Positions 2,795 to 51,057 of a stretch of DNA of 64,000 nt are shown here, piece after piece; positions within the stretch are counted from its first letter, which is position 1; every line of letters begins with the position of its first letter. The notes beneath the pieces were generated by a model. It saw only the letters and a list, made by a program, of their open reading frames with translations, was not told where the DNA came from and did no database searches. The stretch is from an uncultured Rhodobacteraceae bacterium. GTDB lineage: Bacteria; Pseudomonadota; Alphaproteobacteria; Rhodobacterales; Rhodobacteraceae. Location of the stretch: the NCBI GenBank assembly GCA_947503935.1, contig CANNFR010000008.1:133251-197250 (forward strand), written 5' to 3'. The position numbers were made by a program, and so were the translations under genes.

Positions 2795-4114
2795 ATGTTT
2801 TTCCGCTGGCTCAAACGCTTCTTACCACGTGGCCTCTTCGGTCGGGCGATATTGATTCTGCTTGTGCCGGTCGTGGCGGTGCAATTGGTGGTGTCCGTCG
2901 TCTTTCTGCAGCGGCATTTCGACCGCGTGACCGAGCAGATGACACGCAGTGTCGCGATCCCGCTGCGCTACATGCTGGCCGGGATCGATGCTGCGCCCGA
3001 TGCGGAAACCGCGCGGCAGATCGCGACCGAGCTTGGCCAGGATCTGGGCTTCGTCGTGGGGTTTGAGGGCGATCCGGTTATGTCTTCACGCGTGTTCTAC
3101 GACCTCTCGGGCCGCTCTATCATCCGCACGATGCACCGGGTGCTGCCGGCGGTGACGCAGATCGACCTGGGCAGCGATCTGGATTTCGTGCGCCTTGCGG
3201 CCGAAACGGAATGGGGTCTGGCCGAGATTCGCTTTGCCCGTGGGCGGGTTTCGGCCTCGAACCCGCACCAATTGCTGGTCATCATGGTGTTTGCGGGCCT
3301 CCTGATGACGGCGGTGGCCTATATCTTTCTGCGCAACCAGCTGCGCCCGATCACCCGGCTGGCGGCTGCCTCGGATGCGTTCGGCAAGGGCCGGATCGTG
3401 CCCTATCGCCCGCGCGGTGCCACCGAGGTGCGCGCGGCGGGTGCGGCCTTTCTGGACATGCGCGCGCGTATCGAACGGGCGCGTGAGCAGCGCAATCTGC
3501 TGCTGTCCGGCGTCAGCCACGATCTGCGCACACCGCTGACCCGTTTTCGCCTGGCGCTGTCGCTGCTGGATGAGGATGACGATACCCGCGCCATGGTCCG
3601 CGACGTGTCCGAGATGGAGCGGATGCTGGACGATTTCCTGGCCTATGCGCGTGGGGAGTTCGAGGGCGAGGTTGAGGCCGCATCCCCCACCGCGATCGCC
3701 CGAAAGGTGGTCGGCAACGCCGAACGGATCGGGCGGGCCGTGACACTGACCCTCCATGACGACGTGCCCGAAACGGCCGCGATGCGGGTGCATGCCGTGC
3801 AGCGGGCGTTACAAAATCTGGTGCAGAACGCCCTGAGATACGGGCAAAATGTGCAGCTGACGGTCAGCCCGACGCGGGAGGGGTTTTGCTTTGTCGTTGA
3901 GGATGACGGCCCCGGCATCCCGAAAGACCGTCAGGACGAGGCGCTCCGCCCCTTCACCCGCCTCGACCCCGCCCGCAATCAGGACAAGGGCGGCGGCGCC
4001 GGGCTGGGCCTGGCCATCGCGCTGGATATCGCGCGCGCTCATGGTGGGACGTTGCGCTTGGGCCAGAGTGAGGCGCTGGGAGGGCTGAAGGTGACCTTCG
4101 CATTGCCGGGCTAG
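2795..4114 (+). CDS. HAMP-domain sensor histidine kinase (no adjacent response regulator)
   Basis: Two TM segments, then a HAMP-like linker. H-box SHDLRTPLTR, N-box NALRYG, G-boxes DDGPGI and GGAGLGLAI. Confidence 0.85.
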   Translation: MFFRWLKRFLPRGLFGRAILILLVPVVAVQLVVSVVFLQRHFDRVTEQMTRSVAIPLRYMLAGIDAAPDAETARQIATELGQDLGFVVGFEGDPVMSSRVFYDLSGRSIIRTMHRVLPAVTQIDLGSDLDFVRLAAETEWGLAEIRFARGRVSASNPHQLLVIMVFAGLLMTAVAYIFLRNQLRPITRLAAASDAFGKGRIVPYRPRGATEVRAAGAAFLDMRARIERAREQRNLLLSGVSHDLRTPLTRFRLALSLLDEDDDTRAMVRDVSEMERMLDDFLAYARGEFEGEVEAASPTAIARKVVGNAERIGRAVTLTLHDDVPETAAMRVHAVQRALQNLVQNALRYGQNVQLTVSPTREGFCFVVEDDGPGIPKDRQDEALRPFTRLDPARNQDKGGGAGLGLAIALDIARAHGGTLRLGQSEALGGLKVTFALPG

Positions 4115-10274: not shown

Positions 10275-10413
10275 AAGCTTTGCGCAAAGGGCTTTCCCCG
10301 GCGTCTATTGAATAAATGCGCCGCAAGTGCGGCCAACACGCGACGTTTTGCGACCAGCGGCGTTTCACGACCGACACCGCGCCGCTCCGCCGCGAAATGT
10401 GACCTTCACAAAT

Positions 10414-10434
10414 GTTCTTATTTCGTTCTATAAT
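10414..10434 (+). promoter_or_regulatory. alphaproteobacterial LexA (SOS) box GTTCTTATTTCGTTC fused to a TATAAT -10 element
   Basis: A perfect GTTC-N7-GTTC lies at 10414-10428. It is immediately followed by TATAAT (10429-10434), 6 nt before ATG 10441. Confidence 0.7.
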
Positions 10435-10440
10435 TTCGAG

Positions 10441-11525
10441 ATGAGATTGCCCAATTCGACACATCTTGACCCGACCCGGCGCAAGGGCCGTGGGGCGGCC
10501 AGCAATGCGGTCAGCCGGTTCGACCCGTATACGCGCGAGGGGGTCGATGACGGCTGGGAGATTGACGAAGATCTGCCGCCTCTGCGCACCGAGATCTCGG
10601 AAGAGCGGCCCCGTCGCGTGATCACCCGCAACAGCTCGCCCGATATCGGGTTCGACCGGTCGATCAACCCCTACAGGGGCTGCGAACACGGCTGTATCTA
10701 CTGCTTTGCCAGGCCCACCCATGCCTATCTCGGCCATTCGCCGGGTCTGGATTTCGAGACCCGCCTGGTTGCCAGGCCAACCGCGCCCGAGGCTTTGGCC
10801 CGTGAGTTGCGCGCGGCCAGCTATCGGCCCGCCACCCTCGCGCTGGGGACGAATACCGACCCCTATCAGCCGATCGAAAAGGATTACCGCATCATGCGTC
10901 GCATCCTTGAGGTGCTGCGCGATTTCCGCCATCCGGTGGGCATCGTCACCAAGGGCACGCTGATTGAGCGGGATATCGACATCCTGGCGCAGATGGCGGG
11001 GCAGGGGCTGGCCGCGGTGGGCATCAGCGTCACCACGCTTGACCCCGATCTGTCGCGCCGGATGGAGCCTCGGGTGCCTGCGCCCGCGCGGCGGCTTCGC
11101 ACCATCACGCGGCTGGCCGAGGCGGGCATTCCCGTCAAGGTCATGGCCTCGCCCATGATCCCCGCGCTCAGCGATCATGAGCTTGAGGGCATCCTGCAGG
11201 CCGGTCGTGACGCAGGCGCCGTGTCGGCCAGCACGATCACGCTGCGCCTGCCGCGTGAGGTCTCGCCGCTGTTTCAGGATTGGCTGGCCGAGCATTATCC
11301 GGGCCGCGCGGCCCATGTGATGGCGCGTATGCGCGAGTTGCATGGTGGGCGCGACTACGACCCCGAATGGGGCACGCGGATGACGGGCAAGGGACCGTTT
11401 GCCGCTTTGCTGCAGCACCGCTTCAAGATCGCGATTGCGCGTCTTGGGCTGTCGCATCGCCTGCCTCCGCTCAGAACCGATCTGTTTCGGCCGCCGCCCC
11501 AGCCGGGCGACCAGCTGTCGCTGTT

Positions 11526-11529
<4 letters not shown>
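10441..11529 (+). CDS. PA0069-family radical SAM protein (SplB-like)
   Basis: CEHGCIYC (CxxxCxxC) cluster motif and the family-typical N-terminus RKGRGAASN..RF. The start was chosen at ATG 10441. Confidence 0.85.
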
Positions 11530-41938: not shown

Positions 41939-44029
41939 GTGCCCGGCCGTCCCGACATCTTGTTCCCGCTCTTCGGTGATCTGGAAGGGCTGCCCGGTAT
42001 CGGGGCCAAAACCGCCAAGCTGCTGGCGCAGATGGGGGTTGAAAAGCCCCGCGATCTGGCCTTCACCCTGCCGCATTCCGGGATTGACCGGACCTTCCGC
42101 ACCTCGATCCGCGAGGTTGTGCCGCCGGCGACCGTGACGGTTGAGGTGACGGTCGGCCGCCACATGCCGTCGCGCACGAAATCGGGGCCGTCGCGGGTGG
42201 TGGTCGAGGATGCCGAGACGACGTTTCAGCTGGTGTTCTTCCACGCCCGCGGTGATTGGCTGGAAAAGCAGTTGCCGACCGGTCAGCGGCGCGTCGTTTC
42301 GGGCAAGGTCGAACTCTTCGACGGCATAGCGCAGATGGTGCATCCCGACCATATCCTGCGCCCCGGCGAAGCCGACAGCCTGCCGGCGTTCGAGCCGGTC
42401 TATCCGCTGACCCAGGGCCTGACCCAGCGGCTGATGGCCAAGGCCGCGGCCGCAACGGTTGAGCGGGCGCCGGACTTGCCCGATTGGATCGACCCCGCCT
42501 TGAAGGCGCGCGAGGGCTGGCCCGGCTGGCGCGCGGCGCTTCTGGCCGCCCATGCGCCGGCGGGCCAGGCCGATCTGGCCCCGACCGCGCCCGCGCGTCA
42601 ACGTCTGGCCTATGATGAGCTGTTTGCCCACCAGCTGACCCTGGCGCTCGCCCGCCGGGTTGAGCGGCGCGGCAAGGGGCGCCCGTCACACGGTACGGGA
42701 GCCCTGCAAGCGAAGGTGTTGCAGGCGCTGCCCTACCAGCCGACCGCCGCGCAAGAGCGCGCGGTGGCCGAGATCACCGCGGATATGGCGGGCGAAAAAC
42801 GGATGAACCGCCTGCTGCAGGGCGATGTCGGGGCGGGCAAGACGCTGGTTGCGTTTCTCGCGTTGGTGGTCGCGGTCGAGGCGGGCGGGCAGGGGGTGAT
42901 GATGGCGCCCACGGAAATCCTGGCGCGGCAGCATTTGCAAGGGTTGCGCCCCCTGGCCGAAAGCGCGGGCGTGGTGCTGGAAATCCTGACCGGCCGCGAC
43001 AAGGGGGCCGAGCGCGCGGCCAAGCTGGCGGCGCTGGCCAAGGGCGATATCCAGGTGCTGGTCGGCACCCATGCTGTGTTCCAGAAGGATGTCCATTTTC
43101 AAGACCTTAGGCTGGCCGTCGTCGACGAACAGCACCGGTTCGGCGTGGCCCAGCGGATGGAGCTAGGCGCCAAGGGGCAGGGCGCCGATGTGCTGGTCAT
43201 GACGGCCACGCCCATCCCCCGATCGCTGGCGCTGGCCAATTACGGCGATATGGATGTCTCGGTTCTCGACGAAAAGCCCCCCGGGCGCACGCCGGTCTCG
43301 ACCGCTTTGGTGTCAAATGGGCGGCTTGACGAGGTGGTCGACCACCTGCGCCGCGCGGTGGCCGAGGGCAAGCAGGCCTATTGGGTCTGCCCCCTGGTCG
43401 AGGAGAGTGAGGTGGTCGACATGACTGCCGCAACCGACCGGTTTCAGCGGCTGCGTGCGGCTTTGGGTGAAGGTGTCGTGGGCCTTGTCCATGGCCAGAT
43501 GCCCGCGGCCGAGAAGGACGCCGCGATGGCGCGCTTTGTCGCCGGGCAGACCAGCGTTCTGGTCGCGACCACGGTGATCGAGGTCGGGGTGAACGTGCCC
43601 AACGCATCGATCATGGTGATCGAGCGCGCCGAAAGCTTTGGCCTGGCCCAGCTGCATCAGCTGCGCGGTCGGGTCGGGCGGGGGGCCGAGAAATCGACCT
43701 GCCTGATGCTCTATCAGCCGCCGCTCAGCGAAAATGCCGAGCGCAGGCTGGCGATCCTGCGCGAAACCGAGGATGGCTTTCGCATCGCCGAGGAAGACCT
43801 GGCCATGCGCGGGGCAGGCGACGTTCTGGGCACCGCGCAGTCAGGCCTGCCGCGGTTTCGCATTGCGGATCTTGAGCGTCAGGCCGCCCTCATGGCGGTG
43901 GCCCAAAGCGATGCGCGCAAGCTTCTGGCCGACGACCCTGAGCTCAGATCACCCCGCGGTGAGGCCGCACGAACCCTTCTGTGGTTGATGGAACGCGATC
44001 GGGCCTTCCGCCTGCTCAGCGTCGGCTGA
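41939..44029 (+). CDS. recG: ATP-dependent DNA helicase RecG
   Basis: Wedge domain followed by SF2 helicase motifs (GDVGAGKT, DEQHRFG, TATPIPR, QLHQLRGRVGRG). The GTG start is 1 nt after the ligA stop. Confidence 0.95.
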   Translation: MPGRPDILFPLFGDLEGLPGIGAKTAKLLAQMGVEKPRDLAFTLPHSGIDRTFRTSIREVVPPATVTVEVTVGRHMPSRTKSGPSRVVVEDAETTFQLVFFHARGDWLEKQLPTGQRRVVSGKVELFDGIAQMVHPDHILRPGEADSLPAFEPVYPLTQGLTQRLMAKAAAATVERAPDLPDWIDPALKAREGWPGWRAALLAAHAPAGQADLAPTAPARQRLAYDELFAHQLTLALARRVERRGKGRPSHGTGALQAKVLQALPYQPTAAQERAVAEITADMAGEKRMNRLLQGDVGAGKTLVAFLALVVAVEAGGQGVMMAPTEILARQHLQGLRPLAESAGVVLEILTGRDKGAERAAKLAALAKGDIQVLVGTHAVFQKDVHFQDLRLAVVDEQHRFGVAQRMELGAKGQGADVLVMTATPIPRSLALANYGDMDVSVLDEKPPGRTPVSTALVSNGRLDEVVDHLRRAVAEGKQAYWVCPLVEESEVVDMTAATDRFQRLRAALGEGVVGLVHGQMPAAEKDAAMARFVAGQTSVLVATTVIEVGVNVPNASIMVIERAESFGLAQLHQLRGRVGRGAEKSTCLMLYQPPLSENAERRLAILRETEDGFRIAEEDLAMRGAGDVLGTAQSGLPRFRIADLERQAALMAVAQSDARKLLADDPELRSPRGEAARTLLWLMERDRAFRLLSVG

Positions 44030-44056
44030 GCCTGCAATTTCACTTTGTTCGCGAAT

Positions 44057-44071
44057 GTTCTAAAAAAGTTC
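44057..44071 (+). promoter_or_regulatory. alphaproteobacterial LexA (SOS) box GTTCTAAAAAAGTTC
   Basis: A perfect GTTC-N7-GTTC lies in an AT-rich spacer 28 nt after the recG stop. A third GTTC lies 6 nt upstream (44047). Confidence 0.65.
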
Positions 44072-44127
44072 TTGCCAATTGGTAAATAAAGTGAGAACAA
44101 AGAGGCAACACGAAGAGAGGAGACACC

Positions 44128-44250
44128 ATGTTCGGTTCGCTGAAAAACGTTCTCAACCGCACCGCACCAACGCTGATCGAGGATCTGGCGGGCTGTCTGG
44201 CTCTGGTCGTTATTCTGTATATGGGGCTGACACTGCCCAGCCTCATCTGA
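44128..44250 (+). CDS. unannotated 40-aa membrane peptide MFGSLKNVLNRTAPTLIEDLAGCLALVVILYMGLTLPSLI
   Basis: It is below the ORF-track size cutoff. AGGAG lies 5 nt upstream of the ATG. It has one C-terminal TM helix, an SOS box about 55 nt upstream and an intrinsic terminator downstream. Confidence 0.5.
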   Translation: MFGSLKNVLNRTAPTLIEDLAGCLALVVILYMGLTLPSLI

Positions 44251-44356
44251 CTCTGCCTGCGGTCTTTGACGGGCCTTGCGCGTTTCTCCCCAAGTTCCCG
44301 CGCTTTTCCCCGTTCCGGTCTGTCCCCCGGATACCTGCCCCAAAGACACGCTTCCT

Positions 44357-44397
44357 GCCGCCGCCTTCCCACCCCGGAAGTGCGGCGGCTTTTTTAT
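44357..44397 (+). terminator. intrinsic terminator (plus-strand orientation)
   Basis: GCCGCCGC-cttcccaccccggaagt-GCGGCGGC followed by TTTTTTATT. On the minus strand the stem is followed by AGGAAGCG, so it is canonical only for the plus strand. Confidence 0.7.
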
Positions 44398-44850
44398 TCA
44401 GGCGACGCGCGCTTCCGCCTCGGCCACCGCTTCGGCCGTCGCCTCAAGCGCCAGAAGGATCGAGGCGTGACGGTTTTTGTAATCCTTCGCCGGCAACAGC
44501 ACCTCCAGCCCGTCGAAGGGCGGGCCCGGCACCGGGCCGTCTGATTTGAGCATCGCCGTCAATTCGTCGCGGGCCTGCTCAACCTCCGCACGGGTGCGCC
44601 CGATGACGTTGGCCCCGACAACCGACGCCGCCGCCTGACCCAATGCGCAGGCCTTTACGTCCTGGCCGAACTCGGCGATCCGCCCATCCCTGACCACCAC
44701 GTCGACCGTCACGGTTGACCCGCACAAAGGAGAGCGTCGTTTCGCCGTTGCGGTCGGTGCGTCGAGCCGCTTGGCATGCGGCAACTCGACCGCCAGCGCC
44801 CGAATGCGGTTCGAATAGAGTTTGATCAGGTCGGCATCGGTGCTCATCAC
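44398..44850 (-). CDS. NifU/IscU-like iron-sulfur cluster scaffold family protein
   Basis: SufU/IscU-like N-terminal-domain pattern (NP.CG..V......DG.I......V.GCA...ASAS-like). Confidence 0.6.
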   Translation of the reverse strand: MMSTDADLIKLYSNRIRALAVELPHAKRLDAPTATAKRRSPLCGSTVTVDVVVRDGRIAEFGQDVKACALGQAAASVVGANVIGRTRAEVEQARDELTAMLKSDGPVPGPPFDGLEVLLPAKDYKNRHASILLALEATAEAVAEAEARVA

Positions 44851-50589: not shown

Positions 50590-51042
50590 TCCGCAAGGCT
50601 TTGTGATGGCGCTCTAGGGATGCTTTTTGCACAATGAAGGGTGGAAAAACGGCGCAGAAGAGAGCGACCCTGATGACCGCCGCCTCCCGCAATGTTCCTG
50701 TCGATCAGAAAAGCTTGTGCGGAACGGGTCGGTCTACACAGATGATTCTTCCGCAGCGCCCCTGACCATACGATACGCGTGCCGCCAGTGCTGCCGAGAA
50801 GCCTAGGCTTTCGGATCTGACTATACATTTGCAGATCTGATTAAGTTGGCTCGCGATCAGAAAAGAAAACGAAATCGGCGGCTTACAGGTGCTCTTTGAA
50901 GCAAGTGGCATTCGAAAATGTAAGGGCACGCAGAAGTTTCAGACACTCACCAATCGGTAACCAGTCTTTAACCAAAGCATTAGAATGTAGAATTGCAAAA
51001 AATTCGATTGAAATGTTCTTGTTTTGGACCCATAACAAGACA

Positions 51043-51057
51043 GAACGCAACGTGAAC
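51043..51057 (+). promoter_or_regulatory. LexA (SOS) box GAACGCAACGTGAAC upstream of recA
   Basis: A perfect GAAC-N7-GAAC (GTTC-N7-GTTC on the other strand) lies 50 nt before the recA ATG. A weaker GTTC-N7-GGAC lies at 51015-51029. Confidence 0.75.

Follow-up and report, generated by a model that had tools for sequence, protein, structure and literature searches.

A conserved 40-codon gene behind LexA-type boxes downstream of recG in the Rhodobacterales, and its structured 3' untranslated region

A 64,000-nt stretch of DNA from an uncultured Rhodobacteraceae bacterium (assembly GCA_947503935.1, contig CANNFR010000008.1, positions 133,251 to 197,250; hereafter the window) carries, just after recG, a 40-codon gene that is laid out as a self-contained monocistronic unit, with a two-operator promoter, a short leader, the open reading frame (ORF) and a folded RNA tail, and closed by a terminator. 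Judged by its conservation in the Rhodobacterales, this is a real small-protein gene, and it very probably codes for a small membrane protein under the control of LexA. The explanation that best accounts for the unit as a whole, and which we favour with some reserve, is that it is a self-contained SOS gene of the Rhodobacterales. LexA-controlled small membrane peptides are a known kind of product; the protein family described here is new, and a conserved RNA domain goes with it.

The ORF is conserved downstream of recG

The locus was read at positions 43800–44700 of the window, with the ORFs listed by a program. The 40-codon ORF spans 44128–44250 on the forward strand, including the TGA stop codon at 44248–44250, and translates to MFGSLKNVLNRTAPTLIEDLAGCLALVVILYMGLTLPSLI; a Shine–Dalgarno (SD) sequence, AGGAG (44118–44122, forward strand), lies 5 nt before the ATG at 44128. 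Its assignment draws on the ORF list, the homologues, the coding tests and a helix model. Because a word-index search with the single peptide returned only the peptide itself, relatives were reached through RecG, the C-terminal 300 residues of which served as the anchor, and 80 loci were fetched, each from a different Rhodobacterales species. Synteny-anchored tblastn and inspection, a check proposed in a preliminary description of this DNA, revealed that in 79 of the 80 loci recG is followed, at a distance of about 100 nt, by a homologous ORF; these 79 loci and the window make up the 80 units referred to below. The sole locus without the unit (L040, from a Paenirhodobacter sp., positions 3400–4100) has a different, larger ORF after recG.

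All 80 units start with ATG, 66 of them code for exactly 40 residues (range 37–43), and no member has an in-frame stop; frame +1, on the other hand, has stops in 60 of 66. The preliminary description had named loss of the frame in relatives as evidence that would count against its proposal, and no such loss was seen. A GGAG or GAGG sequence is found 5–11 nt before the ATG in 69 of the 80 units and a weaker SD in nine more (78 of 80 in total). Entropies at the three codon positions are 1.23, 0.84 and 1.52, and the G+C content at third positions (GC3) is 0.73. A chance ORF was also considered, and is ruled out by the conservation in synteny at 79 of the 80 loci together with the coding tests.

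The protein family and its annotation

A family profile search returned 280 proteins at E <= 0.01 (90% clusters), and in the 50% clusters a search of the same kind, at E <= 0.001, gave no fewer than 612 representatives. Among the 120 matches listed, every named one goes under "hypothetical protein" and belongs to a Rhodobacterales genus, and a Pfam domain is assigned to none of the 120; the window peptide itself has no match in Pfam. A search of NCBIfam gave only noise (E >= 0.012), a search of PHROGs gave no match and a search of the PDB gave no relative at E <= 10. The remark in the preliminary description that the family could not be recognized was therefore a fair one.

The same description had called the gene unannotated, which holds only in part. 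The ORF is a called gene in the uncultured Rhodobacteraceae assembly GCA_947499315.1, and many relatives are entered as hypothetical proteins; the gene is called in some genomes and called with a wrong start, giving 66–67 residues, in others. Many metagenome gene calls of 51–92 residues (P0030, P0033, P0034, P0036 and others) match over their last 40 residues only, and since the family match is confined to that part, these entries are probably miscalled from spurious upstream codons inside the promoter. In the annotation of Dinoroseobacter shibae, in contrast, no gene is called in the 399 nt that follow recG (Dshi_1510; NC_009952.1, 1573043–1573441; PMC6473078), a gap that matches in size what would be expected of the promoter, a 40-codon ORF and the structured untranslated region (UTR). 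We found no publication on this gene or its RNA, and neither is mentioned in the D. shibae LexA/CtrA network paper, in the multi-chromosome SOS paper, in the Rhodobacter sphaeroides regulatory-network paper or in the Paracoccus denitrificans small RNA (sRNA) catalogue with its supplements.

Two LexA-type boxes at fixed spacing

The spacer that follows recG is 98 nt long and has a GC content of 40.8%, against a window average of 63.3%; only 0.25% of the 98-nt segments within the window are equally AT-rich. The preliminary description had remarked on this AT-richness, and had also placed the GTTC array, the perfect box, AGGAG, the ATG and the terminator where we find them. Three GTTC tetramers, at 44047–44050, 44057–44060 and 44068–44071, form a GTTC-N6-GTTC-N7-GTTC array on the forward strand. 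The last two make up the operator O1, a perfect LexA-type box of the form GTTC-N7-GTTC (GTTCtaaaaaaGTTC, 44057–44071) located by motif search, and the first is an upstream half-site, 6 nt before the main box, which reads TGTTC in the consensus of 79 loci. O1 directly abuts a -35-like hexamer, TTGCCA (44072–44077, forward strand; TTTACA in most relatives), and 17 nt past the hexamer stands an extended -10-like sequence, TGaGAACAA (44092–44100, forward strand; consensus TGAGAACAA, at fixed spacing). A second operator, O2, is an imperfect box in inverted orientation, GAAC-N7-CAAC (GAACaaagaggCAAC, 44095–44109, forward strand), and lies over the presumed -10 region and transcription start. This second box had been missed in the preliminary description of the promoter, which otherwise had the O1 array right.

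The exact sequence GTTC-N7-GTTC is found in 79 of the 80 promoters. Aligned on the box, 79 promoters give the consensus ttTGTTC.CaaATGTTCt.AaAAAGTTCTTtACa-N14-TGAGAACAAAg.gGCAACA with zero indels, in which O1 is joined directly to the hexamer TTTACA (GTTCTTtACa). All 80 units have O2 in the form GAAC-N7-NAAC, 76 of them with CAAC, and it follows O1 at exactly 23 nt in 76 of 79. Counting both strands, there are 84 boxes in these promoters and 18 in the remaining ~1.04 Mb scanned. From position and conservation, the TTTACA-like hexamer would serve as the -35 element, and TGnGAACAA would fit the geometry of an extended -10 element. A simple promoter and terminator scan called neither a promoter nor the bulged terminator at the locus, and both were therefore read from conservation and folding. 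No terminator lies between the recG stop codon and the boxes, so that read-through from recG may add to basal expression of the small gene.

The conserved block GAGAACAAAGnGGCAACA was first taken for an element of the 5'-UTR and is now read as the second box, in opposite orientation. Pairing of the 5' element GAGGCAAC with the UUGCCUC loop of the 3'UTR, or of the leader with the 3'UTR, was also considered; it was rejected because cognate and non-cognate duplexes do not differ in energy, and GAGGCAAC is better read as the second LexA-type box. In some relatives (L004, 3486–3500, and L014, same position) an extra perfect GAAC-N7-GAAC lies over the SD region of the small gene (caacaGAACgttaggaGAACatcATG), a third potential operator.

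In R. sphaeroides, GTTCN7GTTC is the LexA motif, reportedly described by Fernandez de Henestrosa et al. in 1998 and first defined at recA. GTTC-N7-GTTC occurs at six sites in the window, against 1.64 expected, and three of these lie in promoter regions: those of the small gene, of recA (51043–51057) and of a PA0069-family radical SAM gene (10414). The window recA is confirmed by its Pfam match (RecA, E = 7e-144), and the box reads GAAC-N7-GAAC on the recA strand. Its promoter (51014–51057, forward strand) has a GTTC by a TTG-type hexamer, followed after 24 nt by the perfect GAAC-N7-GAAC; it thus shares the two-part geometry of the small-gene promoter (24 versus 23 nt), except that the perfect and the imperfect element have changed places. 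For Caulobacter, ChIP-seq and RNA-seq have established GTTCN7GTTC as the motif of LexA (PMC12700426), and a weight matrix for alphaproteobacterial LexA sites has been applied to D. shibae (PMC6473078). The preliminary description had identified the motif as the alphaproteobacterial LexA operator, and had placed it before recA (51043) and the PA0069-type gene (10414) as well; that identification stands (PMC12700426). Both features by which the alphaproteobacterial LexA regulon is recognized in sequence, an operator and its conservation in orthologous promoters, are found here, and we infer on good grounds that LexA controls the small gene.

The 3'UTR folds into a conserved RNA structure

The preliminary description had correctly closed the unit with a terminator, but had treated what lies between stop codon and terminator as plain spacer, and so missed a conserved structure. 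The intrinsic terminator (44357–44398, forward strand) is a bulged, GC-rich hairpin (44357–44389) in which the stem 44357–44369 pairs with 44376–44389, followed by T6-A-TT, the T6 run occupying 44390–44395; in the form CUGCCGCCGCC...GCGGCGGUUUUUU it is kept in 76 of the 80 units. The preceding 3'UTR (44252–44356, forward strand) appears as a reduced variant of a structured RNA domain by its fold z-score (-5.2), by its minimum free energy (MFE) fold and by a covariance model, R2; in a search of the window only, the window copy has E = 0.076, yet is the best match in the window. Its closing helix pairs 44259–44268 with 44341–44351 and encloses two hairpins, at 44278–44303 with a CUCCCCAA loop and at 44314–44331 with a UCUGUCCC loop; a CUGCCUG motif stands at 44253–44259.

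Across relatives, the stretch from stop codon to terminator measures 105–190 nt, and both its length and the number of hairpins vary. Shared motifs are an initial (U)UUCUGCCUGCGG, CUGUCCC(C)AA, CUGCCUGUC, UUGCCUC and GGUCCCACA, and after them the terminator CUGCCGCCGCC...GCGGCGGU(6-8). Conservation is much higher in the loop motifs than in the stems, and CTGTCCC occurs at 7.6/kb in the UTRs against 0.054/kb elsewhere in the loci (about 140-fold). Independent MFE folds of divergent members arrive at one common topology: a long, asymmetrically bulged closing helix, a hairpin whose loop shows CUGUCCCAA, a small CUGCC hairpin and a further hairpin with UUGCCUC in its loop.

MAFFT alignments of all 68 UTRs, and of 11 that included the terminators, were too poorly in register for structure; the registration was fixed by trimming the terminators, by using a subset of 14 sequences and by iterating the covariance model. 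With the 14 trimmed sequences, RNAalifold recovered three helices, with compensatory changes at 13 of 17 pairs; 87.6% of the alignment cells are paired, compared with 71.5% after shuffling (0 of 500 shuffles reach the observed value), and slid controls give at most 55%. Iterated once, the covariance model matched 57 loci, all at the same position and on the same strand, and made one marginal match elsewhere. In the resulting alignment of 58 rows (57 true matches and one probable false match), which is fitted to the model and thus biased toward structure, 90.3% of cells are paired against 55.6%, and changes on both sides of a pair number 295 against 88.5. An alignment-free comparison agrees, in that the strands of the closing helix prefer their own partner (mean -27.1 kcal/mol, against -22.0 kcal/mol for non-cognate partners), the cognate partner having a median rank of 11 of 73 (p = 4.5e-10). 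Nothing in the window comes near the Rfam gathering score, and Rfam has no match in the 3'UTRs of 11 relatives. By this covariation the 3'UTR is a conserved, folded RNA whose loops are rich in C and U, and it is a candidate for a new RNA family.

The peptide as a predicted tail-anchored membrane protein

That the 40-codon ORF ends in a transmembrane helix had been proposed in the preliminary description, and hydropathy and modelling both agree. With the family alignment, AlphaFold returns a single helix over residues 2–39 (predicted local distance difference test, pLDDT, 85.6). Residues 1–19 are amphipathic (hydrophobic moment 1.09), with about 2.8 basic and about 2.8 acidic residues; residues 20–40 have a mean Kyte–Doolittle hydropathy of 2.07, a moment of 0.27 and an average of 0.03 charged residues. 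The strongly constrained positions are distributed over both parts, K6, R11, T15 and D19 being near-invariant within residues 1–19, and G22, L26, L30, L34 and L36-P37 conserved within the transmembrane half. The C-terminus, ...LPGL[I/F], coincides with the far edge of the transmembrane helix. Because the peptide ends there, the predicted topology is N-in and tail-anchored, with no periplasmic domain.

A model for the unit, and its relation to known systems

We propose that in the undamaged cell LexA would sit on the GTTC-N6-GTTC-N7-GTTC array next to the -35-like hexamer and also on GAAC-N7-CAAC over the -10 and start region. Upon DNA damage, RecA-stimulated cleavage of LexA would free an otherwise strong promoter, with its TTTACA hexamer and upstream A-tract, and a monocistronic RNA of about 300 nt would be made, consisting of a leader with an accessible SD, the ORF, the folded 3'UTR of 105–190 nt and the terminator. 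The ORF product would be a tail-anchored inner-membrane peptide, with a cytoplasmic amphipathic helix (residues 1–19) and an uncharged transmembrane helix (residues 20–40), and would most probably bind a membrane protein partner. The leading guess at this partner is the FtsW/FtsI/FtsN part of the divisome, in which case division might be delayed during repair in the manner of SidA. The 3'UTR, as a closed multi-helix domain that would display the C/U-rich motifs CUGUCCCAA, CUGCCUGUC and UUGCCUC in its loops, may either stabilise the mRNA or act as a 3'UTR-derived regulatory RNA. The anatomy of the unit, the conservation of ORF, boxes and spacing, and the RNA structure are observed; the model supposes in addition that LexA binds, that damage induces the unit, that transcription starts where stated, that the peptide enters the membrane and that division is its target.

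SidA of Caulobacter crescentus is an FtsW-binding division inhibitor of the inner membrane, 29 residues long and controlled by LexA (PMC4211646), and it is for this reason that a brake on the late divisome is put forward as the leading function of the new peptide; we hold this assignment tentatively, at somewhat less than even weight. SidA is the best functional analogue, being like the new peptide a very small single-pass inner-membrane protein of an alphaproteobacterium (PMC4211646, PMC12700426), here by prediction, and having its own promoter with a GTTC-N7-GTTC LexA box. A small single-pass membrane protein and a LexA-type promoter, the marks of the SidA type, are both predicted at the small gene from hydropathy, the helix model and the boxes. 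SidA differs in its length (29 residues, and 40 here); the new peptide has a conserved cytoplasmic amphipathic segment of 19 residues, its family is, among the named matches listed, found only in the Rhodobacterales, its gene stands next to recG, and its transcript would carry a conserved structured 3'UTR. Among other SOS-induced inhibitors, YneA of Bacillus, SosA of Staphylococcus and ChiZ/Rv2719c of Mycobacterium are reportedly single-pass membrane proteins that block late steps of division (PMC13396833; bioRxiv 10.1101/364299). Those proteins have about 70–160 residues and extracytoplasmic domains, whereas the new peptide stops at the outer edge of its helix.

With the 3'UTR in mind, a second comparison is with the ccaF1-CcsR1-4 locus of R. 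sphaeroides, where a small ORF is reportedly followed, on one transcript, by 3'UTR-derived hairpin sRNAs with conserved C-rich loops and by one terminator. The unit has the same general plan, a small ORF, hairpins with conserved C-rich loops and one terminator, and is found in the same bacterial order. CcaF1, however, is a soluble DUF1127 RNA-binding protein, and the new peptide has no Pfam domain; the CcsR RNAs are repeated units with CCUCCUCCC in their loops, under RpoHI/HII control, whereas the new RNA has CUGUCCC, CUGCCUG and UUGCCUC in one closed multi-helix domain behind LexA boxes. Neither a DUF1127 ORF nor CCUCCUCCC loops, by which CcaF1-CcsR and the cuckoo RNAs are recognized, were found at the small-gene locus.

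Several observations weigh against the explanation that we favour. The peptide evolves fast: members are 28–57% identical to the window peptide, pN/pS is 0.62 and dN/dS about 0.88 for close pairs, and clear constraint is limited to about ten positions. dN/dS is a weak coding test here, so that the case for a coding sequence rests on the kept ATG, frame, length and SD. At the promoter, O1 lies upstream of the -35-like hexamer and not over it, the three direct repeats with their 10–11 bp spacing could equally suit a response-regulator site, and the -10 assignment is weak (GAACAA), a simple sigma-70 promoter scan calling none here. The window 3'UTR is a reduced variant, one hairpin short, and its match to R2 is weak (17.1 bits). 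Moreover, the peptide is linked to SidA, TisB and the characterised inhibitors by analogy, no homology to any of them having been demonstrated.

Alternative explanations

The structured 3'UTR raises the question of whether the RNA, and not the peptide, is the main effector. The unit would then specify an SOS-induced dual-function RNA or a 3'UTR-derived sRNA, with the loops CUGUCCCAA, CUGCCUGUC and UUGCCUC pairing with G-rich sites in mRNAs or titrating an RNA-binding protein, and the peptide would take second or subsidiary place. Such a reading can stand alongside the explanation that we favour, from which it differs in emphasis alone, and it fits with a structure that is kept through abundant compensatory changes, with loop motifs far more conserved than the stems and enriched about 140-fold, and with a domain that ends at the mRNA's own terminator, as 3'UTR-derived sRNAs do. 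The resemblance to ccaF1-CcsR1-4 is in its favour as well, and since the next gene is convergent, there is no downstream gene for the structure to regulate in cis. We nonetheless regard a main role for the RNA as doubtful: the length of the domain (105–190 nt) and its number of hairpins vary, with the window copy one hairpin short, a conserved 3' structure may merely shield a short mRNA from exonucleases, and the ORF itself is clearly maintained. About as tentative is a fuller version, in which the unit would be a near-universal SOS dual-function RNA of the Rhodobacterales, whose single transcript would supply a division-halting membrane peptide of a new family and a trans-acting, closed four-helix RNA with CUGUCCC-type loops, of a class not described before; if so, the targets of the RNA would be mRNAs or an RNA-binding protein, and the response to DNA damage would have in it a second arm. 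Less probable than either is a type I toxin. The E. coli genes tisB and dinQ code for small hydrophobic peptides behind LexA-type boxes, and a peptide of their kind would depolarise the inner membrane and cause growth arrest or persistence, while an RNA antitoxin or the structure of the mRNA would restrain it. As with TisB/IstR-1 and DinQ/AgrB, there is here a small hydrophobic peptide behind LexA-type boxes, LexA control as suggested by those boxes, and a long structured untranslated region. The transmembrane half, however, is uncharged and has essentially no charged or polar residues that could line a pore; SD and AUG are not sequestered (mean unpaired probability 0.52, in a leader of about 29 nt); and neither covariation nor cognate preference is seen between the 5' region and the 3'UTR, hence no hok-like long-range lock. 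Nor, in what is a weak test, is an antitoxin RNA evident: a simple scan found no promoter-like site on either strand, all matches of the RNA model at the locus are on the forward strand, and the helices carry G-U pairs, whose counterparts on the other strand would be A-C mismatches. The LexA box is a direct repeat here and a palindrome in E. coli. Finally, the unit has one fixed place by recG in 79 of 80 genomes, unlike type I toxins, which are typically patchy and multi-copy. On these grounds a TisB-like toxin seems improbable, and less likely than a SidA-like division inhibitor.

The regulator itself could be another than LexA. The GTTC repeats might be a tandem site for, for example, a response regulator of the OmpR/PhoB type that would activate from a position before the -35 hexamer, and the gene would then lie outside the SOS regulon. 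A -35-like hexamer with three direct repeats at 10–11 bp just before it, and with a poor -10 sequence after it, would suit the geometry of an activator-dependent promoter, and the N7 spacer (t.AaAAA) is itself conserved; LexA boxes are not usually known to require a conserved spacer. The A-tract can, however, be explained as an UP-like element. The two-part layout is found in the window before recA, a canonical LexA target, and the motif also before the PA0069-family radical SAM gene, a family that we take to be a LexA target. Moreover, the core is the experimentally established LexA box of alphaproteobacteria (PMC12700426). A regulator other than LexA is accordingly, in our estimate, very unlikely.

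Implications of a probably LexA-controlled unit in the Rhodobacterales

Among the Rhodobacterales are the roseobacters, of which the ocean holds many, and the model phototrophs of the genus Rhodobacter, and in the literature found no SOS-induced division inhibitor or small SOS effector is described for them. The unit is a good candidate for their damage-induced brake on cell division. Its promoter is seemingly among the most stereotyped of SOS-type promoters, and in 79 of 80 species the unit keeps one fixed place behind recG; what halts division during repair in this order is thus directly testable in D. shibae, R. sphaeroides, Ruegeria or Phaeobacter. The conserved 3'UTR adds a candidate RNA family tied to the DNA-damage response, and the two-operator promoter with its fixed spacing would suit a clean SOS reporter for marine alphaproteobacteria. 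The case also shows how inconsistently genes of 40 codons are annotated.

Neighbouring genes and other boxes in the window

The conserved upstream neighbour, recG (41939–44029, forward strand; 696 residues in the ORF list), is identified by the Pfam domains RecG_wedge, DEAD, Helicase_C and RecG_dom3_C. On the other side of the unit, a SufU-like gene on the reverse strand (44398–44850; TIGR01994 E = 4e-12, below the curated cut-off, and no Pfam match) is convergent with the small gene, and its stop codon touches the T-run of the small-gene terminator. A convergent SufU-like gene is found at most 600 nt away in 56 of the 79 loci. Lacking an A-run or U-run of its own, the window's SufU-like gene might give transcripts that continue, in antisense, across the small gene.

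The PA0069-family radical SAM gene of the window (ORF 10327–11529, forward strand; NF033668, 510 bits) has its box at 10414–10428. In its promoter GTTCttatttcGTTC runs straight into TATAAT, so that box and -10 element overlap. For this gene the true start must be sought downstream of the first listed start codon. The other three GTTC-N7-GTTC matches in the window (1645, 32299 and 52881) seemingly lie inside coding or tRNA-like sequence or on its border, judged by sequence and ORF coordinates.

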